The notes: generated by a model from the letters alone, not told the origin. Counted from the first letter of the stretch, positions 1,033 to 28,613 are shown. The stretch is DNA of 58,705 nt from an uncultured Verrucomicrobiota bacterium (GCA_964441655.1 CAYTVN010000001.1:1-58705), one strand, 5' to 3'. A program made the numbers and translations.

Positions 1033-1790
1033 ACCGGGGCGGGCTCCGACCGGGCCAGTTTAAGAAACACGTCCCACAGGGTGGCCGCGCCGGCCTTTTC
1101 TTTCAGCGCGGAGGGACGATCCAGCGCCACCAGTCGACCGTGGTTGATGAAGCCGATGCGCCCGCAGAACTCCGCCTCATCCATGAAGTGGGTGGTGACC
1201 AGGATGGTGACCCCGCGGGCCGACAGCCGGTGAATGAGATCCCAGAACATGCGGCGCGATAGCGGATCCACCCCGCTGGTCGGCTCATCCAGAAAAAGGA
1301 TCGGGGGCTCGTGCAGGATGGCGCAGCCCAGGGCCAGGCGTTGCTGATGGGCGCCGGAGAGGGTACCGGTCAGTCGGTCCTCCATCCCGTGCAAGCCTGC
1401 CATCTCCATGGCCGCGGCTTCCCGGCTGCGCAGCCGTTCACCCCGCAGACCGTATACGCCGCCGAAAAAGGAAATGTTCTCGCGCACGGTCAGGTCGCGG
1501 TACAGGCTGAATTTTTGCGACATGTAGCCGATGTTTTCCCGCACGCGCTCCGGCTCGCGGCCCACGTCGTAACCGCCGACCCGGGCCGTACCGCCGGTGG
1601 GAGTCAGCAGGCCGCACAGCATGCGAATGGTGGTGGATTTGCCCGCCCCGTTGGGGCCGAGGAACCCGAATATTTCGCCCCGCGGCACCGCGAAGGAAAG
1701 GTGATCCACCGCGGTAAAATCACCGAAGCGCTTGGACAAACTGTCCACTGCGATAACCGGTTCGCGGGCGCTGGATGTACCGGTATTCAT
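1029..1790 (-). CDS. ABC transporter ATP-binding protein (YbhF-like half)
   Basis: Walker A GPNGAGKST, signature-like LSGAHQQRL, Walker B ILFLDEPTSGVD. Start taken at MNTGTSS (ATG 1790), which forms an ATGA overlap with the stop of the upstream ATPase. The longer track ORF (to 1955) overlaps that gene. Confidence 0.9.
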   Translation of the reverse strand: MNTGTSSAREPVIAVDSLSKRFGDFTAVDHLSFAVPRGEIFGFLGPNGAGKSTTIRMLCGLLTPTGGTARVGGYDVGREPERVRENIGYMSQKFSLYRDLTVRENISFFGGVYGLRGERLRSREAAAMEMAGLHGMEDRLTGTLSGAHQQRLALGCAILHEPPILFLDEPTSGVDPLSRRMFWDLIHRLSARGVTILVTTHFMDEAEFCGRIGFINHGRLVALDRPSALKEKAGAATLWDVFLKLARSEPAPV

Positions 1791-2725
1791 GCGGGAGCCG
1801 GGGCCTCGTGAAGCAGGGCCACAAAAACATCTTCCAGCGTGGGCGCCGTGCGGGACGCGGTCCACACGCCCGCGCTCCGGCCCCGCACATGGTCGATCGC
1901 CGCCTGTAATTCGGGGGCGCCGGCCGGGGTCCAGAAGCGGAGCTGGTCTCCACACAACACCACCTGGGTGGCGGGCCAGCGTTCCCGCAACAGATGGTAT
2001 GCGCAGGCGGCGTCTCCGCCCTGAAGGACGTATACCTCGCCGGGGAGGAGGCGTTTGATTTCATCCGGGGTGCCTGCGGCCACGCTCCGCCCCCCGTGGA
2101 TGAGACTGATGCGATGGCAGCGCTCCGCCTCGTCGAGGTAGGGCGAGGTCATCACCACCGTGACGCCCCGCGCCAACACCTGATCGAGGATCATCCAGAA
2201 TTCGCCCCGTGATACGGGATCCACTCCGGTGGATGGCTCGTCGAGGAAGATCAGGTCCGGGGTGTGAATGAGGGTGCAGGCCAGCGCTAGTTTCTTCTTC
2301 ATGCCGCCGGACAGGGCCTGGGCCAGGCGGGTGCGGAACGGCTTCAGGCGGGTGAAGTCCAGCAACTCATCGCGGCGGACGTGATAGTGCCCCACGCCGT
2401 GTAGTTCGGCGAAGAACTCGATGTTTTCATCCACGCTCAGATCGCCGTAGAGGGTAAAATTCTGGGACAGGTATCCGATGCGGGCCTTCAACGCATCCGC
2501 TTCCGTGGCGAGATCACAACCCAGGACCCGGCCCTGGCCCCCGTGCGGCTTCAGCAAACCACACAACAGGCGGATGGTAGTGCTTTTGCCTGCGCCATCC
2601 GGGCCAACCAGGCCGTACAGCTCGCCGCGTCGCACGTCGAGATCCAGGGCCTGCACCGCGGCAAGGGTTCCGAATGAACGCGCCAGGCCGCGGGTGGAAA
2701 TTACGTTTTCCCCAGACGTGCTCAC
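1787..2725 (-). CDS. ABC transporter ATP-binding protein (YbhF-like half)
   Basis: GPDGAGKST Walker A, LSGGMKKKL signature, LIFLDEPSTGVD Walker B. GTG start at 2725, 4 nt after the HlyD-like stop. Confidence 0.9.
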   Translation of the reverse strand: MSTSGENVISTRGLARSFGTLAAVQALDLDVRRGELYGLVGPDGAGKSTTIRLLCGLLKPHGGQGRVLGCDLATEADALKARIGYLSQNFTLYGDLSVDENIEFFAELHGVGHYHVRRDELLDFTRLKPFRTRLAQALSGGMKKKLALACTLIHTPDLIFLDEPSTGVDPVSRGEFWMILDQVLARGVTVVMTSPYLDEAERCHRISLIHGGRSVAAGTPDEIKRLLPGEVYVLQGGDAACAYHLLRERWPATQVVLCGDQLRFWTPAGAPELQAAIDHVRGRSAGVWTASRTAPTLEDVFVALLHEAPAPA

Positions 2726-2728
2726 GCG

Positions 2729-3481
2729 CTACTCCAGATAGCCATCCGCCGGCAGGCCGGGTTTGAACACGCCATCCGGGTTGGGCAGGGTCACCTTGAC
2801 GCGATAGACGAGTTTGGCCCGCTCGTCCGGCGTCTGCGCATTGCGGGGGGTGAATTCGGCCTCCGGCGATACGAAGGTGATGGTGCCGCGGTAATCGGTG
2901 GGATCACCATCCAGCTTCACGCGCGCCGGCGCGCCCAGTTTGACGCGGGCCAGCCGGTCTTCCGGCAGGTAAAGCGAGAGCCATACTTCATCGAGGCGCG
3001 ACAGGGTGACCAGGGGCAATCCGGCATTCACAAACTCGCCCGCCTCCCGCACCTTCGTGGTGATGACCCCCGGGCAGGGTGCGACCACCGTGCCATCGGC
3101 CACCGCCTTCTCCAACTGGGCCAGCCGGGCCGTGGCCTGTAGCGCCGCCGCCTCCGCGTCATCGCGCTGCTGCACCGAGACGGTTTGGTTTTCATACAAG
3201 CGTTTAATACGATCGTATTCCAGCGTGGCACGCCGTGCGGCGGCGCGGGCTTCATCCCGGCGCAGGGCGTGGTCGGTGGTATCCAGCCGGGCCAGCACCT
3301 GGCCCTGGGTAACCGAGCCCCCCTCCTCCACCAGCAATTCGGTGATGCGACCTGCCACCAGCGGAGCCACCTCCACCTGCGTACACTCCACGGTTCCCGA
3401 TCCATCCGCCCGGGGTTTGCCCAGACGGCAACCGGAGCCCGCCAGGCAGAGGGCCAACGCGTACGGGGTAATCTTTTTCAT
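2729..3481 (-). CDS. HlyD-family periplasmic adaptor lipoprotein (YbhG-like)
   Basis: MKKITPYALALCLAGSGC lipobox. Coiled-coil segment (RRDEARAAARRATLEYDRIKRLYE) flanked by beta-barrel-type sequence. Sits upstream of the ABC ATPases and ABC-2 permease. Start chosen at the internal ATG 3481, downstream of the TetR stop. Confidence 0.8.
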   Translation of the reverse strand: MKKITPYALALCLAGSGCRLGKPRADGSGTVECTQVEVAPLVAGRITELLVEEGGSVTQGQVLARLDTTDHALRRDEARAAARRATLEYDRIKRLYENQTVSVQQRDDAEAAALQATARLAQLEKAVADGTVVAPCPGVITTKVREAGEFVNAGLPLVTLSRLDEVWLSLYLPEDRLARVKLGAPARVKLDGDPTDYRGTITFVSPEAEFTPRNAQTPDERAKLVYRVKVTLPNPDGVFKPGLPADGYLE

Positions 3482-4304: not shown

Positions 4305-4524
4305 CGAAAGGCAAGGCAAGTGTCTATTCGGTCGAATGACCCGGAGGGCGAACAGCCCCATGGGAGCGCACCGCCGCAGGAGGCCCACCGGGCCGGCCGG
4401 TTTTCTTCCCGCCTGCCGCGCCGATCCGCGCATGCGGCGCGACAACAGAGGTCAAGCATACCGAGGAGTCGCCGCGCCATGGCACGCAATCGGCCGGCCG
4501 GGCCGGGATCTCCGGCGGGACATG

Positions 4525-5523
4525 TTAAGGGCTACGAACCTCCTCCGATATTTTCAGGTCGGTAAACAAATTCTGTTCAGGGTCAAACTCCACATTGCGG
4601 TCGTTCGGGGTGGGATTGAGGTAGTAGGTGAAACGAATCTTGCCCCCCGAACCTGAGTCACTCTCCCCGTATTCTATCGGCCCATAGATTTTCCCGTAGC
4701 GAGCGCTGACGATGTTCCCCTCGTCGTCGAGGACCGTTCGGACGCGGAACATCAGATAGGATGCGTCATTCAGCCTATCGTCTGTCAGCAGTCGCTCCAT
4801 CGTTGACGCCAAGGAAAAGATGAATTGCGGGTGATATCCATCGGTATCGGCCTCATAGGCGGAGCGGAAGTCGCTCCACAGCTCTTTGTCAGCTCGATAC
4901 AACCCGTTCATCTCATTGCGGCAAGCAATGACCAACTGATTTGAGAAAGTCCACGCGTCTTGAACTATCGCAGAGAAAGTAATAAACAAATCGCCCACTT
5001 CTCCGCGCCCATATGGAGCCACCCAGTCGCCAGCTTCAACGTCGTAGCCAACAGGCCCACCCCGCAGCGGGATTATTGCGTCAACGCGCTTGGCGTACAT
5101 GGCGATGGGCCGGCGGCGCTCCTTAAGGACAACAGAAATCGTTGGGTTCCATGGCTGCCACCGGCCATCCTTGACGGGTGATTCTCTTTGGGATTGGTTA
5201 AAGACGTATGTGCCCTCGGTATTGTAGTATCCTTCCTTCTTTATTGAGTACCGCATGTCTTCCACGGGGATACCTGCGGCAATAAAACACCCATTTGAAT
5301 CGGTTTTACCCTCAGCCACTTGGCCGCGCTTGTGTGGATTGTAAAACCCGGCATTCACATCTGCCGTCCTCACCGGAAGCCCACTGCTGTCTAGTACGCG
5401 AAGCGTAATCTCGCCCTCTACGCCATACTGTCTCGCCCTTATAACCTCGGGTGACTCCGCCTTAATTATCTCGGCACCCACCGCATAAGATATAAGCACT
5501 GCGGCTAAAAGAGGTTTATTCAT
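4525..5523 (-). CDS. Secreted paralog A of unknown family (N-terminal carboxypeptidase-regulatory-like beta-sandwich + conserved C-terminal YYLNPTPNDRN motif)
   Basis: Signal peptide MNKPLLAAVLISYAVGA. Motifs ITLRVLDSSGLPV, WQPWNPT, YGKIYGPIEYG, RFTYYLNPTPNDRNVEFDPEQNLFTDL. Clear paralog of 5760-6839 and 6904-7926. Confidence 0.8.
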   Translation of the reverse strand: MNKPLLAAVLISYAVGAEIIKAESPEVIRARQYGVEGEITLRVLDSSGLPVRTADVNAGFYNPHKRGQVAEGKTDSNGCFIAAGIPVEDMRYSIKKEGYYNTEGTYVFNQSQRESPVKDGRWQPWNPTISVVLKERRRPIAMYAKRVDAIIPLRGGPVGYDVEAGDWVAPYGRGEVGDLFITFSAIVQDAWTFSNQLVIACRNEMNGLYRADKELWSDFRSAYEADTDGYHPQFIFSLASTMERLLTDDRLNDASYLMFRVRTVLDDEGNIVSARYGKIYGPIEYGESDSGSGGKIRFTYYLNPTPNDRNVEFDPEQNLFTDLKISEEVRSP

Positions 5524-5759
5524 CTGAGGTTTACTCGCAAAACGATTTGGCCGAACAGATCGTAGGTGTAGAAAAAGGCCATGTTTTTGATGTCACTGTG
5601 AAGCCAAGCCTCAAGCAGAGGGGCTGCCAGCGGCTCGGTCGGTCCAGATTTAAGCCCGCCATCCGTGCCCGGGGGTGACCGGGGATGCCTATGACGGACA
5701 TACCGCAGGGCCGAGTCAAATATCCTCGCCTCGGTCAGACGAGCAAAAAGGATGCCATC
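5520..5759 (-). pseudogene. Fossil 3' end of a hydrolase (lipase-like) gene between paralogs B and A
   Basis: Own translation gives 79 stop-free codons ending ...LKSGPTEPLAAPLLEAWLHSDIKNMAFFYTYDLFGQIVLRVNLR*. This aligns with the C-terminus of the 7926-10412 protein (LKTGWPRSNENWHHSDFKNVAFLYVHQFFGDMVAEGDL*). Its TGA overlaps the ATG of paralog A. There is no start codon or upstream body. Confidence 0.7.
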
Positions 5760-6839
5760 CTAAGGCATCCAGACCTCCTCCGAAGACTTCAAGTCGGTAA
5801 ACAAATTCCGCTCGGGATCAAACTCCACATTGCGGTCGTTAGGAGTGGGGTTGAGGTAGTAGGTGAAACGAACCCCTCCACGGCCTTCATCGAAATTTCC
5901 GATTCGTCCAAATTCAATTGGGCCGTAGATTTTTCCGTATCGGGCGCCGATAATCGTGCCCTGCTCGTCGAGCATCGTGCGCACACGCAAAACAAGATTC
6001 TCATCCGCACCAAACAGCTCCTTTTTTAGGAATGTATCCTTGGTCATTTCAAGAGCCAGATCCACGCGCGCTGTATAGCCTTCAGTCGGCGCTTCATATA
6101 CGGACCGGAAATCGCTCCACATGTCATTTTGCGCACGGATAAGCCCATCCATTCTGCCGACACACTCAATGCTAAGCTCGCAGGAACCCGTCCAGAAATC
6201 CCGGGCATTTGTTTTGTATGTGAAAGACAGGTCCGCCCGCTTCCCGGCACCATGCGGCTCCACCCAGTCTCCGACCTCCAGATCAAACCCGACGGGGGAC
6301 TCACTAACCGGTATAGCCTCATCAACACTCCGGGCGTACATCGGAATGGCTCGGCGTCGTTCCTTCAGCACAAGCGTTAACATTGGATTCCAAGGCTGCC
6401 AGCGGCCGCTCCTAACACTGTTTTCTTGCTGATGATACAACCAGTATTCTCCCGAGGATGGGTTTGCGATAGACCCCCTACTTGCATCTAGACCGCTCGG
6501 CCGATAAAACCAGTATTTGCCCGCCGTCGTGTAATAATCATCTTTGCTAACAGTGTAATTCATGCGGTCGATAGTCTTGCCCGCAGCCACAAACAAGCCG
6601 TTGCTGTCAGTCAATCCTTCCGAAACAACGGCATCCGCGGCCAAATCCGAACCCCAAAAAGCCACACTTATCAACGCCTTCTCAACCGGCTTGCCGACAG
6701 AATCAACAACGCGTAGCGTGACCTGTCCTTGAGCGCCTCGGTGTCGCGCCTTCTCGATCTCCAGAGGCCCCGACCACAGATTCACCGCACACAGCCAGCA
6801 CAAGAGAAACGCAAGAGCAAAGGGGGAAACCCGATTCAT
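5760..6839 (-). CDS. Secreted paralog B of unknown family
   Basis: Signal peptide MNRVSPFALAFLLCWLCAV. Motifs VTLRVVDSVGKPV, WQPWNPM, YGKIYGPIEFG, RFTYYLNPTPNDRNVEFDPERNLFTDL. ATG 6839 preferred over the TTG at 6854. Confidence 0.8.
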   Translation of the reverse strand: MNRVSPFALAFLLCWLCAVNLWSGPLEIEKARHRGAQGQVTLRVVDSVGKPVEKALISVAFWGSDLAADAVVSEGLTDSNGLFVAAGKTIDRMNYTVSKDDYYTTAGKYWFYRPSGLDASRGSIANPSSGEYWLYHQQENSVRSGRWQPWNPMLTLVLKERRRAIPMYARSVDEAIPVSESPVGFDLEVGDWVEPHGAGKRADLSFTYKTNARDFWTGSCELSIECVGRMDGLIRAQNDMWSDFRSVYEAPTEGYTARVDLALEMTKDTFLKKELFGADENLVLRVRTMLDEQGTIIGARYGKIYGPIEFGRIGNFDEGRGGVRFTYYLNPTPNDRNVEFDPERNLFTDLKSSEEVWMP

Positions 6840-6903
6840 TGCAAACCTCCCCAAGAAACGATTTGGCTGAACAGATCGTAAGTGTAGAAGCAGTCAGGCC
6901 AAG
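6836..6903 (-). pseudogene. Short fossil of the hydrolase gene 3' end between paralogs C and B
   Basis: Own translation gives AWPDCFYTYDLFSQIVSWGGLQ*, with the TGA overlapping the paralog B ATG. It is 31/33 nt identical to the 5520-5759 fossil over FYTYDLF(G/S)QIV. Confidence 0.6.
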
Positions 6904-7926
6904 CTATGGATCGCGGACTTCCTCCAGTGGGGGCAGATTCGTAAAAAGATTCCGGGACGGATCGAACTCCATGTTCCGATCATTCGGCGTCGGATTCAGG
7001 TAATATGCAAAACGAAGCACACCTTTGGAACTGTACGCAATGTCTCCATATATCTTTCCGTACAAGGCCGTGATGATATTGCCTGAGTTATCTTTCTTCG
7101 TTCGCACACGAAAGAAGTAGTTCTGATCTTCACGCCTTTCGTGATGACTCTCTGCTTCATGCTCATACGAGCTCTTGACTAGAGCATTGCTGTAGCCGCT
7201 TTCCGCCGCAAACCGCGGGGACCGGAACGCGCTACCTTCGCGTGGATGCGAGAAGAACTCTTGGATGCCGTCCCCATCGTTAGCAAACACCACCGAAAAT
7301 TTTGCGTCATACATTGGCCCTCGATCAATTTTTCTCTGCCCTAAATCAGTAGTGTTGAGCTTGAATAAGAGATCGACGATTTCACCCTTCCCGTAGGGTG
7401 AAACCCAGTCGCTTATCATGAGGTCGAATCCTACAGTCTTGCTGAATTCCGGGAGTTGAAGGCGTGGTCTACTGTTGACGAAACTATGGGCAAACATCGG
7501 AATGGGATTAACCACCTCTTTGAGCAGTATATCGACCGTCGGATTCCACGGTTGCCATTGGTCTGCAAGTTGATTGGTGAAGAGGAGTGACCCTCCTCTA
7601 TCCATGTAGTAGACGGTATCGCCGAGCTCCATCTTGTTCATCCTGTCGAATACTCCGCTGACTGAGTACCGCACGCTACCAGTTTTACTCGGCAACTTGA
7701 GAACCACTAGGCCGTTTGTGTCCGTGACGCCGGTTACCCGATCATACTCGTCGCGACCAAACTCGGCGCCGGGGACCCAGCGCAAAAATGTGGACACGGT
7801 GACCGGGGCTCCGGCCACAACATTTCCGAAGTCATCTATCACCCTAAACGTCACCTGGGCATCCGGATCGCCCGCATGCGTCGCAACCGCCAACATCAAC
7901 AGAAGCGTTGAAAACCTCTTCTTCAT
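6904..7926 (-). CDS. Secreted paralog C of unknown family
   Basis: Signal peptide MKKRFSTLLLMLAVATHA. Motifs VTFRVIDDFGNVV, WQPWNPT, YGKIYGDIAY, RFAYYLNPTPNDRNMEFDPSRNLFTNL. Its ATG overlaps by 1 nt the TAA of the upstream hydrolase gene (TAATG). Confidence 0.8.
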   Translation of the reverse strand: MKKRFSTLLLMLAVATHAGDPDAQVTFRVIDDFGNVVAGAPVTVSTFLRWVPGAEFGRDEYDRVTGVTDTNGLVVLKLPSKTGSVRYSVSGVFDRMNKMELGDTVYYMDRGGSLLFTNQLADQWQPWNPTVDILLKEVVNPIPMFAHSFVNSRPRLQLPEFSKTVGFDLMISDWVSPYGKGEIVDLLFKLNTTDLGQRKIDRGPMYDAKFSVVFANDGDGIQEFFSHPREGSAFRSPRFAAESGYSNALVKSSYEHEAESHHERREDQNYFFRVRTKKDNSGNIITALYGKIYGDIAYSSKGVLRFAYYLNPTPNDRNMEFDPSRNLFTNLPPLEEVRDP

Positions 7927-10412
7927 TACAAATCTCCTTCGGCAACCATGTCCCCGAAGAACTGATGAACATACAGGAACGCCACGTTCTTGAAATCACT
8001 GTGATGCCAGTTCTCGTTTGATCGAGGCCATCCCGTTTTCAGCGTCATCAAGTCAACGTTCGCAGCGAAGAAATCTTCCACCTCGTTTCTCCCTGTCGCT
8101 CTAGACGATGCGGGGATCGCTTCTGCCAGTATCTTGCCCCGGACATTGGGTTCAGCCGCCAGAGCACTACCACCCGGCCCATAGAGAGCCTTGTCATAGA
8201 ACCGCTTGAAGAACGATTGAGTACGAAGCAGGTAGTCGGGCAACAACGCGGCTTCGTCCGGCGTAGTAGCCTTCACGAAAACGCCGTTGCTTGGGTCGTA
8301 GACGCCTCTGCTGTACGCGCCGTTGAAGCCCCACCCGCCGTGTGAATCGACACCAACTAGAACAGTTGGCAGGATGCCGCCTTTTACTTTCTCCTGAAAA
8401 ATCCACGCCTTTTCGGTCGCGGGCAAGTGCATGTTGCGTGGCGGATCGTTATTGTTCAGAACATCCTCACCGGAAGAGTAGTAATTGATCGCTCGTGAGA
8501 TATTTCCGAAACGCGCGCGCCAAGTCAGGTAATAACGACCGTCGGGCTCATCGAAAAGCTTGTACCAGTCCGCAGCCCAGACACGATTCGTGTACGAGGG
8601 CCAAGGCGACTCCTCTATTTCTAGCGGATGCCGAGCGGTGGCTTTGTACGCCTCCATTGCCACGGCGGCATCGATCATGAAGTAGCGCGCGAGATTGAGC
8701 CTGTGATCGATTATGGCGCTGGATGCAACCATATTGCCCAAGCTGTGAGCCGCCAGATATTTCTGTCCCGGTAACGCCGCCATGGATGAAGCCAACGCCG
8801 GAGCCGCTTGGAATGCATTTATGACGTCGGCGTGATAATATGCCCCCGGAGTAAGAACGCCCGGCGTTTCATCACCTTCCCACGTCACCGCCGTAAACAT
8901 CGCGCAGGAACCCGATTGAAACAGCCGCTTGAAGACTTCCGCGTTCCACCCGCGTGCGCCAGCTTCGGTTGTGTTAAATCCATGCACAAAGACAAACTGC
9001 TTCCCATTACAAATACTGTCTGGATAATTTGATGGCACTCCATCCTCCGTATGACGCGCTTCGCGACCACCTGTAACATGCCGCAAATTAATCCACCGAT
9101 ACATCTCCTCCACCCCGTCCACACTCAACGCCAGTTCGCGGCGGCCCAGCAAAGTCCCGCCTTTCCAGACTTCCAGGCGGAGGGGGGACGTGGTTTTTTT
9201 GGTGCCTTCCACCAGCAGTACACCCTTCTCCCGTTCGAGTCGGATGCGTGACAGGAATGACTCCGCAAGGGCTGTACCGGAGGCGTAAACGGCGAAAACT
9301 TCCGCCTCAAAGGACTTCTGATCAAGTTGCGGACCACACGAGGCAACGTCCGCAATCTGGTAGCGACCGGCTTTATTCCGCATGAGATCTGTGTACACGG
9401 CTTTGACGGCAATATCGCCCTGGCTCAGCTTGATGATGACCCCGTCGCCTTCGTGGATTTCGTCCACGACTTGTTTCACGTCCAGCCAGAGCGGAAAGAA
9501 ATCCAGCAGATCACAGCGGCCCGACACCCAGCCCTGACGACAATTCGCTTTTTCTCCAGCCCCGGGGATGTCCTGCTCGCCCTCGGAAACATCCCCGAGA
9601 TCCTGGTCGTCGTTGATCCAGATCCGGTAGGGATTCTCTTCCGTGATCTTGTCGCGATCATCATCACCAATCGCGCGATCACGATTTACGTCCGGCACCA
9701 GAGCCATATCCAACACCTTGACCAGCACGTCCGCATAACAACCGTTCGCATCCCAGACCATGATGGTGGTCTTCCCGGTTTTCACGCCGGTGACCAAGCC
9801 CTCCTGATCCACGTCGGCAATCTCGGTATCCCGACTTTTCCAGTAGTACGGCGGAGCACCTTCCGCGTGCAGCTGCAGGTTGGTCCCCAAAAATACATTG
9901 GTCCAGACACCCCAGAGATCGAGCTTGGTTACAGTTCGGCTGACCCAGCTGGTGGTCGCCGGCGGGGCACACTTCCGGTCCAGCCGTGTTACAAAACGGC
10001 ATTTGTATTCCTTGTTCGTAACACCCTGGCAAGAGGCCGCGGGGCCGGAACCCTGCGCTACGATTTTCTTCTGGCACCAGATGGTCCACGTGTATTCGGG
10101 AACAACCGGCGCGATGTACTGGTCAATGTACAGGGGCGGGCACACCTCGGGATGGCGATAGACAATGACTTTCTGGTTGTGGGCGCCCTCGTCGGTGAGC
10201 TCGACCGGTACCAGGAAATTAACGGTTTCGTTCAGGCAGACCGGATCGCTGGAATTCTCGTTGAATTTCTCCGTTATGTCGTTGGAACAATCGGTTTCGT
10301 ATTGCCCGCGATAGCGGCACCCGTGCCGATCCATCCCGTCCATCGCCGTCGCCGTCAGCACGCCAAAGGCGCCCAGCGCAAGCAACGCCGCTAAACATCG
10401 GCTGGCTTTCAT
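7926..10412 (-). CDS. Secreted multidomain protein: Big_2-like Ig domain + acidic middle region + C-terminal alpha/beta-hydrolase (lipase/esterase-like)
   Basis: Signal peptide MKASRCLAALLALGAFGVLTATA. Big_2-like LQLHAEGAPPYYWKSRDTEIADVDQEGLVTGVKTGKTTIMVWD. Hydrolase motifs FVFVHGFN and AAHSLGNMV (A-H-S-x-G nucleophile elbow). Start at ATG 10412 forms an ATGA overlap with the upstream gene. The 98-aa Arg/Gly-rich extension in the track ORF was rejected. Confidence 0.8.
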   Translation of the reverse strand: MKASRCLAALLALGAFGVLTATAMDGMDRHGCRYRGQYETDCSNDITEKFNENSSDPVCLNETVNFLVPVELTDEGAHNQKVIVYRHPEVCPPLYIDQYIAPVVPEYTWTIWCQKKIVAQGSGPAASCQGVTNKEYKCRFVTRLDRKCAPPATTSWVSRTVTKLDLWGVWTNVFLGTNLQLHAEGAPPYYWKSRDTEIADVDQEGLVTGVKTGKTTIMVWDANGCYADVLVKVLDMALVPDVNRDRAIGDDDRDKITEENPYRIWINDDQDLGDVSEGEQDIPGAGEKANCRQGWVSGRCDLLDFFPLWLDVKQVVDEIHEGDGVIIKLSQGDIAVKAVYTDLMRNKAGRYQIADVASCGPQLDQKSFEAEVFAVYASGTALAESFLSRIRLEREKGVLLVEGTKKTTSPLRLEVWKGGTLLGRRELALSVDGVEEMYRWINLRHVTGGREARHTEDGVPSNYPDSICNGKQFVFVHGFNTTEAGARGWNAEVFKRLFQSGSCAMFTAVTWEGDETPGVLTPGAYYHADVINAFQAAPALASSMAALPGQKYLAAHSLGNMVASSAIIDHRLNLARYFMIDAAVAMEAYKATARHPLEIEESPWPSYTNRVWAADWYKLFDEPDGRYYLTWRARFGNISRAINYYSSGEDVLNNNDPPRNMHLPATEKAWIFQEKVKGGILPTVLVGVDSHGGWGFNGAYSRGVYDPSNGVFVKATTPDEAALLPDYLLRTQSFFKRFYDKALYGPGGSALAAEPNVRGKILAEAIPASSRATGRNEVEDFFAANVDLMTLKTGWPRSNENWHHSDFKNVAFLYVHQFFGDMVAEGDL

Positions 10413-12637
10413 ACCTCGCCATCCCAGCGCGCGATGTCCTCCAGCACTTCCTCTCGATATTCCACGAAGCGCTCCCGCTCCGCGCCGTTCAGCGGGAGTT
10501 GATCCAGCTGGAGGCCAACGGCCAGCAGCGCGGCTTTGCCAACGATGGCTTGATCCAAACGCAAGCCGGGATCGGACCCCAGAATGGCGCGAATCTGCTG
10601 CACCGCCACCGCCACGGCGGCCAGGTCGCCGCGCCGGTAATCCAGCATCGCGAGCCACAGGTGCGCGATGGCACAGCGGGCATGCCCGGGCAGCAGGGTT
10701 ACGCAATCCCGGAAACAGCGCGCCGCATCCCCCGCGCGACCCGGCTTACCCATCAGCCACTGGCCGTAGGAAATCCCCACCTGGACGCGGCCCACCGATG
10801 GCGTTCCAAGGTCCGTCAACAGACGGCGCGCCCACGCCTCGCCCTCCCCGTCCCGATCCAGAAACCAGCAGGCCTCCAGCAAGTAGGCTTGATATTCCCA
10901 GTATTGTTCCTTCTCGGACCAAAGCTGATCCCGGTCCGCAGGCGTGAGTCGTTCCCAGCGCCGCAGCGCCGCCTCGCAGCGACCAAAGTCGCCCACCTGC
11001 CGGCGCGTCAACAGGAACAGCAGGTTCAGACGAACCGATGGATGAAGGGCCGAACCCAGACGCTCCGTGATTTTGGCCTCGCCAAGGTCGAGCACCTGGT
11101 TGGCCAGCGCATCATCCACCAACCGCAGCTGCCGCGCCGTGTCGAGCACCAGCTCCACGTTGGTGCTGGCCGCCAAGGCTTCCATTAACTCACGCCGCCA
11201 GACGCCATCGCCCGGCAACGTGCCCGCTTTCACCAGACAGCGAATCCATTCCAGCTTCGCCTGGATCCGAAACCGCTCGGGACTTTGCGGCGATGCCGCG
11301 TAGCGCTGATACCACGCAGCCGCCGCACCCGGCCGACCCCGCTGGACCTCCAACCGCGCTCGCGCCCACACCGCGCGCCCCCAGCCGGTTGAACCAACGG
11401 GTTCGTTGGCAACCGCCCGTTGAAAAAGGTCTGCGGCACGATCCTGTTCCCCGGCCACAACCAGCACCCGGGCCAAGCCGTGGTATATCCGCGTGGCGAA
11501 GGCGGCTCCAAACCGACGCCGCCCGTCCGCCACCCAATCCTCCACGGGCGTCGCTCGCTTTTGCGCCAGCAACGCGCGCAGGCGTATTTTGGAAACGGCC
11601 AACCACTCCAATGCGCTCACCGTGGGATCGCGCAGAAACGCGTGGGCCAGCTCCAACTGCTCCCCGGGGGCGCGCACCTCACTCACCGCAGAGGCCAGGA
11701 GCATTTTATGCAGTTCCGCCGCCGCGACCGGAAAGACCGCAGCTTCCGCCGCGAGCCAGGTCCGGGCCACGCTCCGCCACTGGCGCATATCGCGCTTCCG
11801 CAACTCGCGCACGATCAACCCCACCGCGCGAGCCCGTACCGAGGGTTTGGCTTGCGACAAGCCCGCGAGCAAATTCTCGCTGATTTGCCAGCCCCCCTGC
11901 GCCCGGCGCGCCGCAATCAGCGTAGCCCAGCCCGCCAGCGTCTTGGCCCCGAACGCGCCATTGCGGATGGACTTCGCGGCCAGATCGTAGGCCCGCATGT
12001 ATTCTTTCTCGGCCAGTGCGATGCAGGCCATTCCCTGGTGGGCACGACACGCGCCCTGCGGATGAAGGGCCATGGCCTGGTGGTAGAATTCCGCGGCCGC
12101 CCCCAGCTCGCCCTCCTGCAAAAACAAAGTGCCCATGCGGGTGGCCACCACGCCAAAACGCGGAGGTCGCGGCCCGACCCGAAGCTGTCCCGCCGCGCTC
12201 AACGCGCGCTCGGCTGTCTGGATGGAGGCCTGAAATGCATCCTCCTTGTAGCGGGCCAACTGGCAGGCATGCCGGGCCATCACCAGCGCGTCGTCGAGCA
12301 GTCCGCTTTTGAGCAAAGCCCGAACCTGGCCCACCGCGGGTCGCAGCCAGAGAGTATGATGCGCCAGCGCGCGGGTTCCGGCTTGGGTGTAAATCTGCGC
12401 GGCCGCCCCGAAATCACCGCGCTTGAATTCGCTGTCCGCGACCTGACCGAGCAGCCGGGATTCCAGCGCGCGATCACCCCCCGCGGTCTCCAACTCCCGG
12501 TTCACCCGCGTCAGCGCATGCGCGTAGCGATGATGCTGCACGAGGCGCGCGATTTCGCGCAGGGTGACCGATAATTTCTTGCGATCGTTAGGTTCTTGTC
12601 CGGCTCGTTTTCGGTACTTGATTCTCTTGGTTTTCAT
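10409..12637 (-). CDS. Cytoplasmic all-alpha TPR-like repeat protein
   Basis: 742 aa, Ala/Leu/Arg-rich, with repeated helix-pair patterns (e.g. FKRGDFGAAAQIYTQA, YMRAYDLAAKSI, DRAADLFQRAVA, YRRGDLAAVAVAVQQI). No signal peptide and a basic N-terminus MKTKRIKYRKR. High GC, unlike the downstream genes. Confidence 0.6.
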   Translation of the reverse strand: MKTKRIKYRKRAGQEPNDRKKLSVTLREIARLVQHHRYAHALTRVNRELETAGGDRALESRLLGQVADSEFKRGDFGAAAQIYTQAGTRALAHHTLWLRPAVGQVRALLKSGLLDDALVMARHACQLARYKEDAFQASIQTAERALSAAGQLRVGPRPPRFGVVATRMGTLFLQEGELGAAAEFYHQAMALHPQGACRAHQGMACIALAEKEYMRAYDLAAKSIRNGAFGAKTLAGWATLIAARRAQGGWQISENLLAGLSQAKPSVRARAVGLIVRELRKRDMRQWRSVARTWLAAEAAVFPVAAAELHKMLLASAVSEVRAPGEQLELAHAFLRDPTVSALEWLAVSKIRLRALLAQKRATPVEDWVADGRRRFGAAFATRIYHGLARVLVVAGEQDRAADLFQRAVANEPVGSTGWGRAVWARARLEVQRGRPGAAAAWYQRYAASPQSPERFRIQAKLEWIRCLVKAGTLPGDGVWRRELMEALAASTNVELVLDTARQLRLVDDALANQVLDLGEAKITERLGSALHPSVRLNLLFLLTRRQVGDFGRCEAALRRWERLTPADRDQLWSEKEQYWEYQAYLLEACWFLDRDGEGEAWARRLLTDLGTPSVGRVQVGISYGQWLMGKPGRAGDAARCFRDCVTLLPGHARCAIAHLWLAMLDYRRGDLAAVAVAVQQIRAILGSDPGLRLDQAIVGKAALLAVGLQLDQLPLNGAERERFVEYREEVLEDIARWDGEV

Positions 12638-13996: not shown

Positions 13997-16774
13997 GTGA
14001 GGAAAATAGCATTAACGCGCACCCCAAGGGCATCCATGGTTTGGATCGCCCTCTTGAGCGCCTCCTGCGCAGCGCTCGCGGGATCGCCCACCGGGTGGAC
14101 CACGGGCGGAAAATCTGTGCTGGTGCTACCCGTTGATTTCACCGACAGCCCGGCCCCGGCGCCACCCCCCGAAGGGTGGACAACTGTAATGGAGCGGGTC
14201 AACCAGTTCTATCTGCTTCAATCCTACGGCCAGGCGTGGTTCAGCACGTCGGTGGTTGCTCCGGTGATCCATATGGGCGTTTCGTGGACCAACTATGTCC
14301 CGTACTCCAACTGGAAAACCTCCGCCTTTCTGCCAGACATCCGGGCCAAGGCAAAGCTGGCCGGTTACGATACCGATGATTTCGATCTGGAAGTATTTCA
14401 CCTGCGGCTGACCAACGAAGCGCCCGTAGGCATCGCGCTGCACGGCGGCAAAGGCTGCTGGCTGAACTTCACCAATGGCTACCCGCGCTTCGCCCTGGCC
14501 ACGGCGCACGAACTGGGCCACAACTTCGGACTGTTTCATACCCGGGCCTTCTCCGCGGCCAACTACGCCGTCTTCCCGATCGCGAAATACGGATTCTTCT
14601 GGGATGAGTACGGCGGAATGTTCGACACGATGGGCTCCGGCACGACGAACCTGCAGGCGGACTTCTGTGTGTACAACAAGAACTTTCTGGGCTGGATTCC
14701 CGATTCGCAGATCGCACGCCCCACCACGTCCGGCGTCTATCGCATTCATGCCTTCGACCAAGGAACAATCACGCCCGCCCTGTTCTACGGCATGAAGATC
14801 GAGCGCGACCCGAACAACGATTACTGGTTCGAATTCCGCCAAGCCTTCACCAACAACCTCTGGAGCATGAACGGCCTGCTGATCTACTGGGGCGGCGATG
14901 CCGCGTCGGTGTCCATCGGTGGGCCGATGCTGTTGGACATGACGCCGGGAAGCCGCGGGCTGGATGATCCCGAGCCGAACCGCGCCCCGGGAGCCACCAT
15001 ACTCGATGCACCCCTCGTGCTTGGCCGAACCTATTCTGACCCCGCCGTAAACCTGCATGTCACACCGCTTCGCAAAGGAGGGACCGTTCCGGAATCGCTC
15101 GATCTCGCCGTCCGCTTCGGTCCGTTCCCAACCAATCATCCCCCGACCGTTTCGCTTACGGCGACCAATCTCGCGCCAGCCACGAGCCAGCTGGTGCACT
15201 TCGCCGTCGCGGCCAGTGATCCGGACGGCGACCCGCTGGCGTATTACTGGGAATTTGACGATCCGGGCGCGGCCCGCGGCGCGGGGTTGGTGCCGTTCGG
15301 CGCCGGGTCTCCGAATCCGGATGCCATGCTCGCCACCGAGGCTGGACAGGCCTGGGCCAGCAGCGGTGTGTATCAGGTGCGCTGCACCGTCACCGACCTG
15401 AAGGGCGGTCAGGCTACGGCCGCCGCGCTGGTAACGGTCGGAAGCGGGGACGGCATCACCATTACAGGCACCGTGAAAGACGAGCAGGACCAGCCGCTCG
15501 CGGGAGCGATCGTAAGCAACTGGAAAAACACCAATCCCAACGCGGTAACGTTCGGGAACTCCAACCTGTTCGTGTCTTCCGAAACCGCCTCCAATGGACA
15601 CTACATTCTCCGCGTAAAACCCAACTCCACCAACCTGCTCCGAGCCCACGCCAAAGGCCGCGCCTTCATCTGCAACACGCCCGGCGGATCAACCACGGGC
15701 ACGGTGGTCGTGGGCGGCTCCAGCATCACCAACGTGAACTTCGTACGCACCACGAACCTGTGGACCATCAGCGGCTCGACGTTGCTGGCCGGCAACAGCG
15801 GGATTTACCAGCCCTCCACCCAGGGTCCGATCACCATTCAGGAATCCTTTTCCGGGCAGGAAACAAATGTCACCACCAACGGCACCTGGCAGATGACCGT
15901 CCCGGACGGACCGGTCGCCCTCTCTTTTATCGCCCCCACAAATTACGTGATCCGCTACAACCTCCCGAATCCGTACGACGTGAACGACCACTTCAATCTG
16001 TTCACCTTTTTCGTGGACGTACCCGGCGCGGTTTCCTACGAGGGCTTCGGCTCTGCATCGGACAGCGGAGATGGCAGCGCCGGCCTGGTCAATATCCCCG
16101 TGGTTCTTACCTTGCCGACGGGCTACACCAACAGCACGTGGCCGCCCAACCTCTGGATCGGCGCCGTCGTAGACGCGCGCAGCACGGCCTCCTACGGCCT
16201 CGACTACCGGCTCAACGGCATGGAAATCACCTTCACGAACTACACCTCGATCTTCACCAACCAGATCGCCCTGCAGCTCCGGCCCAATTCCTCAACGAAC
16301 AGCCGGACCATCGTGCTGCACCTCGACGCCTTTAACGCCGGGGCCAACCTCGGCGGGATCCAAACGTATACCTACGCCATCATCCCGCCCGGCGCGGATG
16401 CCGACGGCGACAGCCTGCCCGACTGGTGGGAGTGGCAGTTTTCGCAGAGCTTCACCAATCTGGCTCCGGAGCTGGACGATGATGCCGATCAGGTCGTCAA
16501 CCGGGACGAGTTTGCCGCCGACACCGACCCCGAGAATGCCGCATCCAAACTCGACATCCACGCGCTGCACTATTTGCCGGGTGGCGTTCAGCTTCAGTGG
16601 ACGGGCGGAACGCAGGCTGTGCAATTTATCGAATGCCGGCTGAACCTTCTGGATCCGGCTGAAGCCTGGACCACGATCCATACCAATCTGCCACCCACCT
16701 CACCCACCCCGAGCTTCCTCGCGCCCGAAACCACAAATCCATCGGCCTACTTTCGAATCCGGGCCGTGCGTTAG
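13997..16774 (+). CDS. Large secreted zinc metalloprotease (metzincin HEXXHXXGXXH) with PKD-like, carboxypeptidase-regulatory-like and TSP3-like modules
   Basis: Active site ATAHELGHNFGLFH. DPDGDPLAYYWEFDD (PKD-like), ITITGTVKDEQDQPLAGAIVSN, DADGDSLPDWWEW. The start may be ATG 14036 (MVWIALLSASCAALAGS signal peptide). Confidence 0.8.
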   Translation: MRKIALTRTPRASMVWIALLSASCAALAGSPTGWTTGGKSVLVLPVDFTDSPAPAPPPEGWTTVMERVNQFYLLQSYGQAWFSTSVVAPVIHMGVSWTNYVPYSNWKTSAFLPDIRAKAKLAGYDTDDFDLEVFHLRLTNEAPVGIALHGGKGCWLNFTNGYPRFALATAHELGHNFGLFHTRAFSAANYAVFPIAKYGFFWDEYGGMFDTMGSGTTNLQADFCVYNKNFLGWIPDSQIARPTTSGVYRIHAFDQGTITPALFYGMKIERDPNNDYWFEFRQAFTNNLWSMNGLLIYWGGDAASVSIGGPMLLDMTPGSRGLDDPEPNRAPGATILDAPLVLGRTYSDPAVNLHVTPLRKGGTVPESLDLAVRFGPFPTNHPPTVSLTATNLAPATSQLVHFAVAASDPDGDPLAYYWEFDDPGAARGAGLVPFGAGSPNPDAMLATEAGQAWASSGVYQVRCTVTDLKGGQATAAALVTVGSGDGITITGTVKDEQDQPLAGAIVSNWKNTNPNAVTFGNSNLFVSSETASNGHYILRVKPNSTNLLRAHAKGRAFICNTPGGSTTGTVVVGGSSITNVNFVRTTNLWTISGSTLLAGNSGIYQPSTQGPITIQESFSGQETNVTTNGTWQMTVPDGPVALSFIAPTNYVIRYNLPNPYDVNDHFNLFTFFVDVPGAVSYEGFGSASDSGDGSAGLVNIPVVLTLPTGYTNSTWPPNLWIGAVVDARSTASYGLDYRLNGMEITFTNYTSIFTNQIALQLRPNSSTNSRTIVLHLDAFNAGANLGGIQTYTYAIIPPGADADGDSLPDWWEWQFSQSFTNLAPELDDDADQVVNRDEFAADTDPENAASKLDIHALHYLPGGVQLQWTGGTQAVQFIECRLNLLDPAEAWTTIHTNLPPTSPTPSFLAPETTNPSAYFRIRAVR

Positions 16775-25329: not shown

Positions 25330-25492
25330 GGCTGGTTATGCTACACGCGTCTGGACGCGATCCTAGCGCAAGCTGGCCCGTCTGTGAACTGCGGATGCAC
25401 GCATTTGATGCATGGATTTTTTATGGCATAGCGCCCGCGGCTTGCCCATAATGGCTCCCTGTTTGGGCTCGAACCCGGCCCGCAGACCGAAT

Positions 25493-26746
25493 ATGAGCGA
25501 TATCAACTGGCACAAAATCATGCGCCGCACCAACATTCTGGTGCATGTCCTCGGTTATCTGGCCCTGGGCCTGGGCGCCATCATCGCCCTGGGTGCGCTG
25601 CTTCAGGACGATCTGTCCCCCACGCGCCCCCGCCTGCTGAGCCTGGCCATCAAGTACGGGATCGGCGGCAGCGCCTTGCTGCTCCTCCGCTTCTTGGTCT
25701 ACACGCTGCCCCATCTGCTCACCACCCGCCGCTCACCCACCCATCAGCGACGCCGCGCCCTGTCGCGAAATCAAATTCCCGGCCCGGCCCGGGATCCGCG
25801 CGGCGGCGGCGTGCTCGTGCTGGTCCTGGTCCTGCTGGCCCTGTTGTCCGTGCTGCTGGTCCAGTCCCACGCCCTGGCCCGCCACCGTCTGCGCGCCGAG
25901 GAGTCGGCCCGCGCCACCGCCGACCTTCGCCGCACCGCCACCGCCGCTGTGTTTGCCGCCCTGCAACGACTGGCCGACGATCCGGACCTGGCCGTGGATA
26001 CCACCAACGAAAGCTGGGCCGTGCGGGAGGAAATCACCACCCCGCAAGGCATCAGCACGCTCACCCGGGTGTGGGACGAAAACCGGCGCTTTGATCTGAA
26101 CAACCTCGCCCTGGCCGATCAGGGCGAAGCGCGCGCGACGGACGAAATCCTCATGGACATGCTGACCCTGTGCGGCGATTTCACCCCGGTGGCCAAGGTG
26201 GGCGCGGTGCGCGATTTCCTGGATCCGAATGCGACCGGCCTGCACGAGGCGGATCTATACAGCAAGCGCACCCCGCCCGAAGTCTGCGCCAACCGCACCC
26301 TGCACGCCTGGGGTGAACTGCTCGCCGTGCCCGGCTGGACGCGCGAACAGTTCGAACGCAAAGCCCGCTTTGGCGCCGACCGCACCTTTGACGGTGACCT
26401 GATCGATTGCCTCACCCTGATCCCGACCCCGCGCGAAAAACCGCTGCCCATCAACATCAACACCGCCTCCCGCGAAACCCTTACCGGCGTGCTGGGACTG
26501 GGGCAGGACGCCCTGGTGGCCACCATCCTGACCCTGCGATCCTTGAAGCCCATCCGCGACCTGGAGTCCATCGCCCTCATGGCCGAGCCGGGGGTCTTCG
26601 AATCCGTCCGGCCCTATCTTGCGGTGCAAAGCCAGTGGTTCGGCATCGAAACGCTGGCCTTCGCCGATGGACACACGGAGCGGGTACGCGCCCTGGCCTC
26701 ACGCACACGGGAAGGGCGGGTGGACGTGGTGCAATGGCTGCTCTAA
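25493..26746 (+). CDS. GspK-like type II secretion minor pseudopilin with ~100-aa two-TM N-terminal extension
   Basis: Pseudopilin-like hydrophobic segment GGGVLVLVLVLLALLSVLL. T2SSK-type C-terminal HhH sequence PININTASRETLTGVLGLGQDALVATILTLRSLKPIRDLESI. The frame is open from 25412. The core might start internally. Confidence 0.65.
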   Translation: MSDINWHKIMRRTNILVHVLGYLALGLGAIIALGALLQDDLSPTRPRLLSLAIKYGIGGSALLLLRFLVYTLPHLLTTRRSPTHQRRRALSRNQIPGPARDPRGGGVLVLVLVLLALLSVLLVQSHALARHRLRAEESARATADLRRTATAAVFAALQRLADDPDLAVDTTNESWAVREEITTPQGISTLTRVWDENRRFDLNNLALADQGEARATDEILMDMLTLCGDFTPVAKVGAVRDFLDPNATGLHEADLYSKRTPPEVCANRTLHAWGELLAVPGWTREQFERKARFGADRTFDGDLIDCLTLIPTPREKPLPININTASRETLTGVLGLGQDALVATILTLRSLKPIRDLESIALMAEPGVFESVRPYLAVQSQWFGIETLAFADGHTERVRALASRTREGRVDVVQWLL

Positions 26747-28119: not shown

Positions 28120-28613
28120 AAGCACCACGCCCCCTCCTGCTCAGCGCCATCCTGCTCGCCGTGGTCGCCCTCGGCCTGACCGTCCACACAGTGATCGGCA
28201 CGCCTCGCGCACTCGCCCAGCTGGCCCGACGACACGGCGACCTGCTACAGTTGCACGGCCTGTCCGAACACAACGCCGACAACCGCAAAGCACTCACCAC
28301 CTACGAGGCCACCGCCGACGGGGCGCCCGACCTGGCCGCCTGGAGCCGGGAACACCTGCCCGACCTGGCGGTGGAAATCACCGACCGCGAAACCCTCCCC
28401 CTGCGAACCGGTTGGGCGGTGCGCCGGGTTGACGTACGCCTGGCAGACGTTACGCTGGACGGGGTTGGTCAACTGCTGGCCGGGGCCGAAGCCCTGCGCC
28501 CGCCGTGGCGCGCCGTCGAGCTTCAGATGAACGCGACCGGCGAGGCGGGACGCGGGCAGGCCAGCCTGGTCATGGAAACCGTCATCCGGCAAAACAGCGG
28601 AACAACGCCTTGA
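28116..28613 (+). CDS. GspM/PilO-like small bitopic membrane protein
   Basis: MKAPRPLLLSAILLAVVALGLTV TM helix plus ~130-aa periplasmic domain. ATGA overlap with the upstream gene. The assignment rests on size, topology and context only. Confidence 0.4.
   Translation: MKAPRPLLLSAILLAVVALGLTVHTVIGTPRALAQLARRHGDLLQLHGLSEHNADNRKALTTYEATADGAPDLAAWSREHLPDLAVEITDRETLPLRTGWAVRRVDVRLADVTLDGVGQLLAGAEALRPPWRAVELQMNATGEAGRGQASLVMETVIRQNSGTTP

Follow-up and report, generated by a model that had tools for sequence, protein, structure and literature searches.

A probable polymorphic toxin-immunity system built on a lipase-like hydrolase in an uncultured Verrucomicrobiota bacterium

Most of what is known about interbacterial toxins comes from Proteobacteria, Bacteroidota and Firmicutes, and mostly involves dedicated injection systems. 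Gut, marine and sediment communities are rich in Kiritimatiellia, Verrucomicrobiota and Lentisphaerota, which are difficult to culture. Here, we describe a locus on a 58,705-nucleotide (nt) stretch of DNA from an uncultured Verrucomicrobiota bacterium (GCA_964441655.1 CAYTVN010000001.1:1-58705; the window in the following) in which the gene of a secreted alpha/beta-hydrolase, HYD, is followed by three genes of a second secreted family, parA, parB and parC. From its sequence and that of its relatives, it quite probably represents a polymorphic toxin-immunity system whose family has not been described before. Polymorphic toxin systems are characterized by a conserved N-terminus, a sharp junction motif, a divergent C-terminal enzyme that travels with the downstream gene, and displaced fragments (Zhang et al. 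2012, PMC3482391); the same authors list a class that depends on Sec and the type II secretion system (T2SS), which the Sec signal of HYD would fit. A secreted archaeal alpha/beta-hydrolase, cinquedea, is described in a preprint as a bactericidal phospholipase that acts without a contact-dependent apparatus, with most of its archaeal homologues carrying a DUF900 domain (bioRxiv 10.64898/2026.06.10.730825). Our literature search found nothing specific on a lipase toxin of the Planctomycetes-Verrucomicrobia-Chlamydiae (PVC) superphylum or on a T2SS lipase-immunity system.

An earlier note on this DNA had described five minus-strand genes with two start/stop overlaps and a set of protein motifs, all of which are real (lengths in amino acids, aa):

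10409-12637, minus strand: TPR protein, 742 aa; signal peptide absent; Pfam TPR_14 (E 2.4e-9) and others
7926-10412, minus strand: HYD, 828 aa; Sec signal, Cys-rich N-terminus, Big_2 domain, region like the N-terminus of PAD4, alpha/beta-hydrolase
6904-7926, minus strand: parA, 340 aa; signal peptide; putative periplasmic immunity protein, cognate to the resident HYD allele
5760-6839, minus strand: parB, 359 aa from the ATG; signal peptide; orphan immunity-type gene
4525-5523, minus strand: parC, 332 aa; signal peptide; orphan immunity-type gene

Displaced cassettes and allele swapping

Overlaps are found at only two of the four junctions, one of 4 nt where the TPR stop lies over the HYD start (gtATGAaa) and one of 1 nt between the HYD TAA and the parA ATG (ttgTAATGaag), so that the earlier picture of a translationally coupled five-gene operon holds for these two junctions and is an overstatement for the locus as a whole. 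The gaps between parA and parB (64 nt) and between parB and parC (236 nt) both hold remnants of HYD 3' ends:

6839-6889, minus strand: remnant 1, 17 codons that once closed a displaced HYD allele (CFYTYDLFSQIVSWGGLQ, then stop), whose stop overlaps the parB ATG (ATGA)
5523-5660, minus strand: remnant 2, ca. 45 codons from the 3' end of a displaced HYD (...GLKSGPTEPLAAPLLEAWLHSDIKNMAFFYTYDLFGQIVLRVNLR, then stop), whose TGA overlaps the parC ATG

Remnant 2 aligns with the final 29 positions of the HYD profile (hyd.hmm 669-697, E 3.4e-8), shares 81% nt identity with the 3' end of intact HYD (5575-5606 versus 7978-8009) and is collinear with the end of the intact HYD gene of a close relative, L071. 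The profile match of remnant 1 (hyd.hmm positions 682-698, E 0.75) is weak alone; this remnant is 94% identical to remnant 2 over 34 nt and has its counterpart in the tail of the intact HYD of another close relative, L068 (FYTHELYNQIISQGDLQ), which stands before a parB-like gene. Because the remnants lie directly before parB and parC with their stop/start overlaps kept, each of these genes must once have stood behind a HYD 3' end. What was toxin sequence there has decayed, and the two par genes are intact. parB and parC are orphan cassettes left from earlier HYD alleles and not, as previously suggested, diverged partners of the resident HYD.

The remnants also bear on the idea that HYD and par form an exposed complex that is diversified, as a surface antigen or phage receptor, under phage or predator pressure, with the downstream copies serving as silent cassettes. 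A cassette architecture with silent, signal-less fragments would suit this idea, and so would the large, repeat-rich N-termini of HYD homologues that are typical of surface proteins. Yet in the window it is the "silent" HYD parts that are degraded and the par genes that are intact, the latter retain their own signal peptides and start codons, and every allele strictly conserves the catalytic triad, for which pure antigenic variation would have no need. We consider this explanation very unlikely.

Contigs of close relatives were obtained via a search for homologues of the TPR protein and compared with the window by blastn and sliding protein identity. The simplest layout is found on the 2.7-Mb contig L071, where genes for a PKD-domain protein and a nucleoside phosphorylase-family protein (PNP), TPR and HYD (821 aa) are followed by one par gene, the orthologue of parC at 69% identity, and by TetR, HlyD and ABC genes. 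This contig aligns with the window in three blocks, the first at 83.6% nt identity from window position 16639 down to 9081, the second at 77% between L071 8918-9986 and window 5606-4538 (remnant 2 and parC) and the third at 87% along the TetR flank from window position 4320 to 1. L068 aligns at 85.8% nt identity down to the very same base, 9081, and resumes only at remnant 1 and the start of parB (L068 6218-6364 corresponds to window 6889-6743); the parB N-terminus is indeed similar to that of the par protein behind the L068-type HYD allele. These comparisons define two breakpoints:

9081-9104, minus strand: breakpoint 1, demarcation motif MYRWINLR (HYD 437-444), with the blastn alignments of L068 and L071 both ending at 9081
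8322-8339, minus strand: breakpoint 2, GGWGFN motif (HYD 692-697), from which L068 and L071 diverge

Base 9081 is the last base of the Y-R-W-I-N-L-R codons (HYD residue 444), and the identity of window HYD to its L068 and L071 counterparts falls from 75-100% for residues 1-440 to 15-50% for residues 445-828. The codon-third-position GC content (GC3) is ca. 0.60 in HYD and the par genes versus ca. 0.80 in flanking genes, but this drop was rejected as a marker of breakpoint 1 because it occurs at the HYD start and not at 9081.

L068 and L071 share 98.3% nt identity across 5.9 kb, as far as HYD residue ca. 692, and only 47-65% identity at the protein level thereafter. They differ solely after GGWGF and in their par gene, which is parB-like in L068 and parC-like in L071. 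The minimal swapped cassette thus comprises HYD residues ca. 693-828, including the catalytic His804, together with par; since the two strains differ only in these last ca. 135 residues and in par, specificity would map to the C-terminal subdomain. When compared with an L071-like ancestor, the window contains extra material between the YRWINLR junction and the last ca. 84 nt of the old HYD gene, composed of a new hydrolase allele (type A), parA and what is left of a type-B cassette. In L062, which is syntenic but more distant, its own HYD-par pair is followed by a Y1 transposase, a HYD remnant and a par gene 78% identical to parA. The window therefore bears the par types of the L068 and L071 alleles and L062 bears that of the window, and the locus offers concrete allele-immunity pairs (types A, B and C) as well as natural chimeras that would place specificity in the last ca. 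135 residues of the enzyme.

The joint swapping has to be weighed against the simpler proposal that HYD is a digestive or nutritional esterase or lipase and par a periplasmic inhibitor that shields the cell's own envelope, with no interbacterial role. Precedents would be AprI/Inh, which are inhibitors of secreted proteases. The Sec signals on both HYD and par, the tight translational coupling of the two genes, the variable adhesin-like or glycan-binding-looking N-termini of HYD homologues and the fact that no delivery machinery linked to the HYD-par module was found would all be at home in this proposal. It leaves unexplained, however, that near-identical strains swap the HYD C-terminus together with par, that strains bear the par type of a relative's allele and that par genes stay intact where only 17-45 codons of their HYD are left, and we regard it as unlikely.

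As a polymorphic toxin-immunity system, the locus might work as follows. HYD would be exported through Sec, with type II secretion as a possible onward route, and its C-terminal alpha/beta-hydrolase (Ser557-Glu649-His804) would be the toxic domain, probably lipid- or ester-cleaving. parA would be made in step with HYD through the 1-nt overlap, enter the periplasm, bind the C-terminal subdomain of HYD and protect the producer and its kin. New hydrolase alleles would come with their own par gene via recombination at YRWINLR (the hydrolase start) or at GGWGFN (ca. 135 residues from the end), pushing the earlier HYD 3' end and its par gene downstream. The displaced toxin fragment would then decay and the displaced par gene be kept since it still protects against neighbours with that allele, with parB and parC as such survivors. 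Action in the envelope is indicated by the signal peptides on HYD and all three par proteins, and a lipid or ester substrate by an alpha/beta-hydrolase with lipase-like traits; the toxicity and substrate of HYD, its physical binding to par, the periplasmic localisation of par and the route through the outer membrane or into a target cell are what we infer from sequence.

The hydrolase and its partner family

Pfam searches bear out the domains initially named for the TPR protein (TPR_14) and HYD, where Big_2 is found at residues 191-221 (E 4.9e-7) and Abhydrolase_6 at residues 473-646 (E 1.6e-5) as the sole match for the hydrolase part at E<=1. An AlphaFold2 (AF2) model of HYD reached a predicted local confidence (pLDDT) of 82 overall and above 90 for most of residues 240-828. 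The first 173 residues (window 10412-9894), Cys-rich after the signal peptide, have a pLDDT below 50 and no family match, yet must be a real, lineage-specific and conserved part of the protein because they share 72-90% identity with L068 and L071. For the acidic middle (ca. 237-435), the best Foldseek match is to the non-catalytic N-terminal beta-sandwich domains of human PAD4 (E 3e-8), and the C-terminal domain produces generic esterase/lipase alpha/beta-hydrolase matches including BioH3, LipS and CesB. A PDB sequence search with HYD gave nothing significant, with pancreatic-lipase-related proteins at E 0.09-0.15 only. The AAHSLGN motif had been likened to the nucleophile elbow of Bacillus LipA-type lipases; it does not place HYD among them, as HYD has no match to this family (Lipase_2) at E<=1. 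The residues of the hydrolase domain, with conservation counted in an alignment of 79 HYD homologues, are:

7929-9080, minus strand: alpha/beta-hydrolase (putative toxin) domain, allele type A (HYD 445-828)
HYD residues 477-478, minus strand: H477-G478 in FVFVHG, oxyanion motif; H in 78/79, G in 79/79
8742-8744, minus strand: Ser557 in AAHSLGN, putative nucleophile; 79/79
8466-8468, minus strand: Glu649, after beta7; always acidic, E in 63 and D in 16
8001-8003, minus strand: His804 in WHHSD (W-x-HSD); 79/79

In the model, the HG motif follows the strand at 471-476, Ser557 that at 550-556, Glu649 that at 641-645 and His804 that at 784-787, a predicted order that is canonical for the alpha/beta-hydrolase superfamily. 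Judging from conservation and modelled strand order, the putative triad Ser557-Glu649-His804 with its HG oxyanion motif appears complete. Of the Asp and His that the earlier note had proposed to locate, the His is thus His804, and the acid is a glutamate, Glu649, and not an Asp. D581, at a spacing like that of pancreatic lipases, was rejected as the catalytic acid, being Asp in 44 and Asn in 33 of the 79 homologues.

HYD homologues range from ca. 400 to 2,877 aa and have the C-terminal ca. 600 residues in common, i.e., the PAD-like region and the hydrolase. Their N-termini are variable, with TSP3, RCC1, Ig or other repeats, and the only Pfam domains in HYD and its large homologues in these searches are Big_2, TSP3_bac, RCC1 and Glucodextran_B. 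Homologues also match PF12697, and some match DUF900/PF05990.

The proteins encoded by parA, parB and parC share 35-50% mutual identity and have the WQPWNP and YGKIYG motifs and the YYLNPTPNDRN tail in common. The carboxypeptidase-regulatory-like N-terminus previously ascribed to them is visible to Pfam as a weak CarboxypepD_reg domain in parB and parC. That their core could not be assigned to a family agrees with our results: no Pfam or NCBIfam family covers it, a PDB sequence profile search came back empty, and Foldseek searches against the PDB and the viral models of BFVD matched only the first ca. 80 residues, a transthyretin/CarboxypepD_reg-like sandwich (TM ca. 0.2-0.25). The AF2 model of parC is all-beta with a pLDDT of 94, but as these searches reached the N-terminal sandwich at most, the fold of the core stays unplaced, and par would be a new fold for inhibitor studies.

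An exhaustive profile search (E<=1e-30) puts the par family at 1,889 clusters at 50% identity, nearly all of them stand-alone proteins of 310-400 aa and named only "hypothetical" in their source; one member, P0002, is 69% identical to parC. Many polar residues are invariant, among them D161, D178, R262, Y276, K278 and N303. At the locus L064, two more genes behind HYD and par (14331-16688) have a weak CarboxypepD_reg N-terminus and a tail "...TNPYGDRNLEQATDLPYEV" that resembles the YYLNPTPNDRNxEFDP of par; they fall under the par profile threshold and probably form a distant par subfamily.

The HYD-par pair across genomes

A scan of one genome per species yielded 61 loci (L001-L061), mostly from metagenome-assembled genomes (MAGs) of Kiritimatiellia, Verrucomicrobiota and Lentisphaerota. 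Open reading frames (ORFs) were called and searched with the HYD and par profiles, and the 88 par ORFs were classed by their upstream gene. This gene is a HYD homologue including the Ser region for 36 of the 88, an ORF matching only the HYD C-terminus for 15 and another par gene for 17; ten par genes are solo with HYD absent and ten lie at contig edges. HYD-linked arrays therefore hold 68 of the 78 informative par genes, which answers in the affirmative the question of genomic co-occurrence posed at the outset. Among 52 HYD-par junctions, 29 show the 4-nt ATGA overlap and five a 1-nt overlap. HYD and par are thus a real, conserved two-gene module of undescribed families, as the earlier note had suspected, and both families are common in Kiritimatiellia, Verrucomicrobia and related phyla.

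Other phyla have signal-less C-terminal orphans of HYD that lack Ser557. Their first residues are those of YRWINLR or GGWGFN, and a par gene stands behind each of them; hydrolase-only orphans begin at YRWINLR and many orphan fragments at GGWGFN. Neighbours that recur in the 61 loci are antisense shadows of HYD and par, Y1 (IS200-like) transposases and a few small clusters of unidentified ORFs, which leaves the Y1 transposase as the sole recurrent identified neighbour besides these shadows. Y1 transposases with a C-terminal helix-turn-helix-like extension lie in or beside HYD-par arrays (L009, L018, L019, L030, L031, L062 13652-14599 and L065 12081-12473), and HYD is truncated in some of these cases. 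At L063 (7927-12273), a signal-less HYD of 413 aa that starts from YRWINLR and is 73% identical to window HYD sits with its par gene directly behind two tandem tyrosine integrases, on an island that also carries primase, resolvase and DruA genes and a second pair of HYD fragment and par (1646-3276). This island looks like a mobile element bearing HYD-par cassettes. Mobility is also in keeping with the Y1 transposases and with the lower GC3 of HYD and the par genes in the window.

The conserved adjacency and coupling of the two genes could also mean that par is an obligate helper, i.e., a folding, activation, secretion or surface-anchoring partner matched to the HYD C-terminus in the manner of Lif or of two-partner systems. 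Its strongly conserved motifs would make sense in such a role, and since the catalytic His lies in the swapped cassette, activity could depend on a matching partner. For orphan and solo par genes, however, there would be no enzyme to assist, arrays of up to four par genes without HYD exist (L034), and par is all-beta and matches neither Lif/Lipase_chap nor another chaperone family. We see this as a distinctly unlikely explanation: a helper is useless without its enzyme, so the retention of orphan par genes is the chief argument that par protects against HYD rather than assisting it. Taken together with the displaced cassettes and the joint swapping of allele and par, this retention favours effector/immunity over lipase/foldase, the two layouts that had been put forward for the locus. 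The former therefore stands as an array of effector and immunity genes, though not as a T6SS (type VI secretion system) Tle/Tli array, and the comparative evidence goes against the latter.

Several observations nonetheless weigh against a polymorphic toxin-immunity system. All HYD alleles are homologous versions of one fold (15-50% identity), whereas classical polymorphic toxins have toxin domains that are unrelated to each other. The HYD-par module is not linked to any known delivery apparatus, and Pfam finds no RHS, FHA, VENN, LXG or PAAR trafficking domain in HYD or its large homologues. With ca. 330 aa, par is large for an immunity protein, and its invariant polar residues could signal an enzymatic or ligand-binding role of its own. 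The solo par genes (10 of 78) stand amid housekeeping genes. In a mirror-tree test of 52 pairs, par identity tracks every HYD region alike (r 0.76-0.81), and since these distant-locus correlations do not single out the C-terminus, it is from the close-strain comparisons that its part in specificity is drawn.

The TPR protein had been put forward as a possible chaperone or regulator of the module. As a universal component of the module it is rejected: profile searches of the ORFs of the 61 loci found the TPR protein in none of them, and its linkage to HYD is confined to one Kiritimatiellia clade. Its 74 homologues, all ca. 742 aa and where named from Kiritimatiellae/Kiritimatiellia and Verrucomicrobia MAGs, are always encoded next to a divergently transcribed PNP (PNP_UDP_1) gene. 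What follows downstream differs. HYD, its start overlapping the TPR stop, takes this position in the window and in L062, L064, L067, L068, L069 and L071. In L065 (10226-11705), it is a pair of 168-aa and 320-aa proteins, both with signal-like N-termini and the larger HEAT-like, and in L066 (10460-11954) a pair of 176-aa and 304-aa proteins, the larger weakly Ank-like. The end of the 168-aa protein of L065 (...FNCQNWAAKQLE) recalls papain-like/PPPDE motifs. As the position holds HYD-par in most genomes of the clade and other pairs in these two, TPR is a lineage-specific upstream neighbour and does not define the module. Cassettes of this kind may use it as a landing site or to drive their expression, and the position behind it may be a general "toxin slot".

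The locus is flanked by a TetR-HlyD-ABC efflux operon on one side and by the PNP gene and a PKD-domain protein on the other. The latter (13997-16774, plus strand; 925 aa) combines PKD with a CarboxypepD_reg-like domain and has kept synteny with L071; it is unrelated to the HYD-par module, yet shares the N-terminal domain type of par. A promoter/terminator scan gave counts not above those of shuffled sequence, and its single notable hit is a terminator-like hairpin (GGATGCCTTAGGATGGCATCC followed by TTTTT) across the parB stop codon (5750-5770, minus strand), which means that parC transcription may be separate or occur by read-through. A partial type II secretion cluster (25412-28613, plus strand) lies some 13 kb away from the locus and starts with a gene for a GspK-like minor pseudopilin at 25.4 kb (PF21687 T2SSK_1st, E 4e-7), followed by two ORFs (ca. 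26.7-28.1 kb and 28116-28613) that could be GspL/M-like. This cluster is a candidate export route for HYD.

Comparison with known systems

When held against the described features of polymorphic toxins, HYD has a conserved N-terminal and a variable C-terminal region with a sharp junction (window versus L068/L071), its downstream gene co-varies with the toxin allele (36 loci; L068/L071), and C-terminal cassettes are displaced together with par (the window remnants, 15 fragment-par pairs and L062). Among Pfam matches, a recognised trafficking module of the T5SS/FHA, T6SS/PAAR-VgrG, T7SS/LXG (type V, VI and VII secretion), RHS or TcdB/TcaC kind is absent. The closest likeness is to CdiA-CT/CdiI of contact-dependent growth inhibition (CDI) and to Rhs-CT/RhsI, in which "CT" denotes the C-terminal toxin part. 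As in those systems, a large secreted protein with a conserved N-terminal part carries a motif where the toxin allele begins, an immunity-type gene lies directly downstream with displaced, signal-less CT fragments and immunity genes further down, and strains hold immunity genes for the alleles of their relatives. Unlike CDI and Rhs proteins, HYD has no RHS, FHA, VENN, LXG or PAAR modules and is apparently exported by Sec, and its alleles are diverged versions of one alpha/beta-hydrolase fold with a second breakpoint inside the catalytic domain, so that the last ca. 135 residues with the catalytic His are swappable alone. Its partner, secreted and all-beta, has 330 aa and comes from a family without annotation.

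With the T6SS effectors Tle1-5 and their Tli partners, HYD-par shares a serine hydrolase presumably aimed at the envelope, an adjacently encoded immunity-type protein with a signal peptide and arrays of diverged immunity-type paralogs, but HYD has its own Sec signal (confirmed here as first noted) and an A-H-S-L-G nucleophile motif, and par has no match to a known Tli family. Tox-ABhydrolase-1 corresponds to DUF2235, a T6SS Tle family, and HYD has no Pfam match to this or another Tle family at E<=1. In agreement with what had been read from the window before, none of its ca. 35 scanned ORFs is a T6SS gene (VgrG, Hcp, PAAR or adaptor), and no T6SS gene is recognisable in the conserved neighbour clusters of related loci, most neighbours of which were not Pfam-scanned.

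In LipA/Lif pairs, too, the gene of a secreted lipase shares an operon with a partner gene behind it. Lif, a steric chaperone, is alpha-helical, anchored in the membrane and found as a single copy, whereas par is all-beta with a cleavable-looking signal, occurs in arrays and as orphans, lacks the helical fold and N-terminal membrane anchor, and has no Lipase_chap match in Pfam or NCBIfam. Going by the description of cinquedea, HYD resembles it as a secreted alpha/beta-hydrolase, some homologues of which match DUF900/PF05990; in the accessible part of that preprint, cinquedea is a single-gene unit for which no immunity partner is reported, and it has no PAD-like pre-domain or cassette arrays.

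New here would be a toxin family with a PAD-like pre-domain and a YRWINLR junction, an immunity family with an unplaced fold, an export that apparently depends on Sec and may continue via type II secretion, and a second breakpoint, inside the hydrolase domain, at which just the third of the enzyme with the catalytic His is exchanged. The chances seem about even for the wider proposal, i.e., a T6SS-independent, Sec-exported polymorphic family of lipase-like toxins across the PVC superphylum, with an immunity fold that has no known relative, with the last ca. 135 residues (catalytic His) swapped together with the immunity gene inside one catalytic fold, and with the post-TPR position of Kiritimatiellia as a dedicated "toxin slot" for different secreted pairs. 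The known toxins would gain a large unannotated family, and the immunity proteins one of ca. 1,900 clusters at 50% identity. Thousands of "hypothetical proteins" could receive a working annotation, and the question arises of how a Sec-exported hydrolase gets to competitors. In its workings, HYD-par is like CDI and Rhs toxins and Tle/Tli pairs, and it belongs to none of those families.

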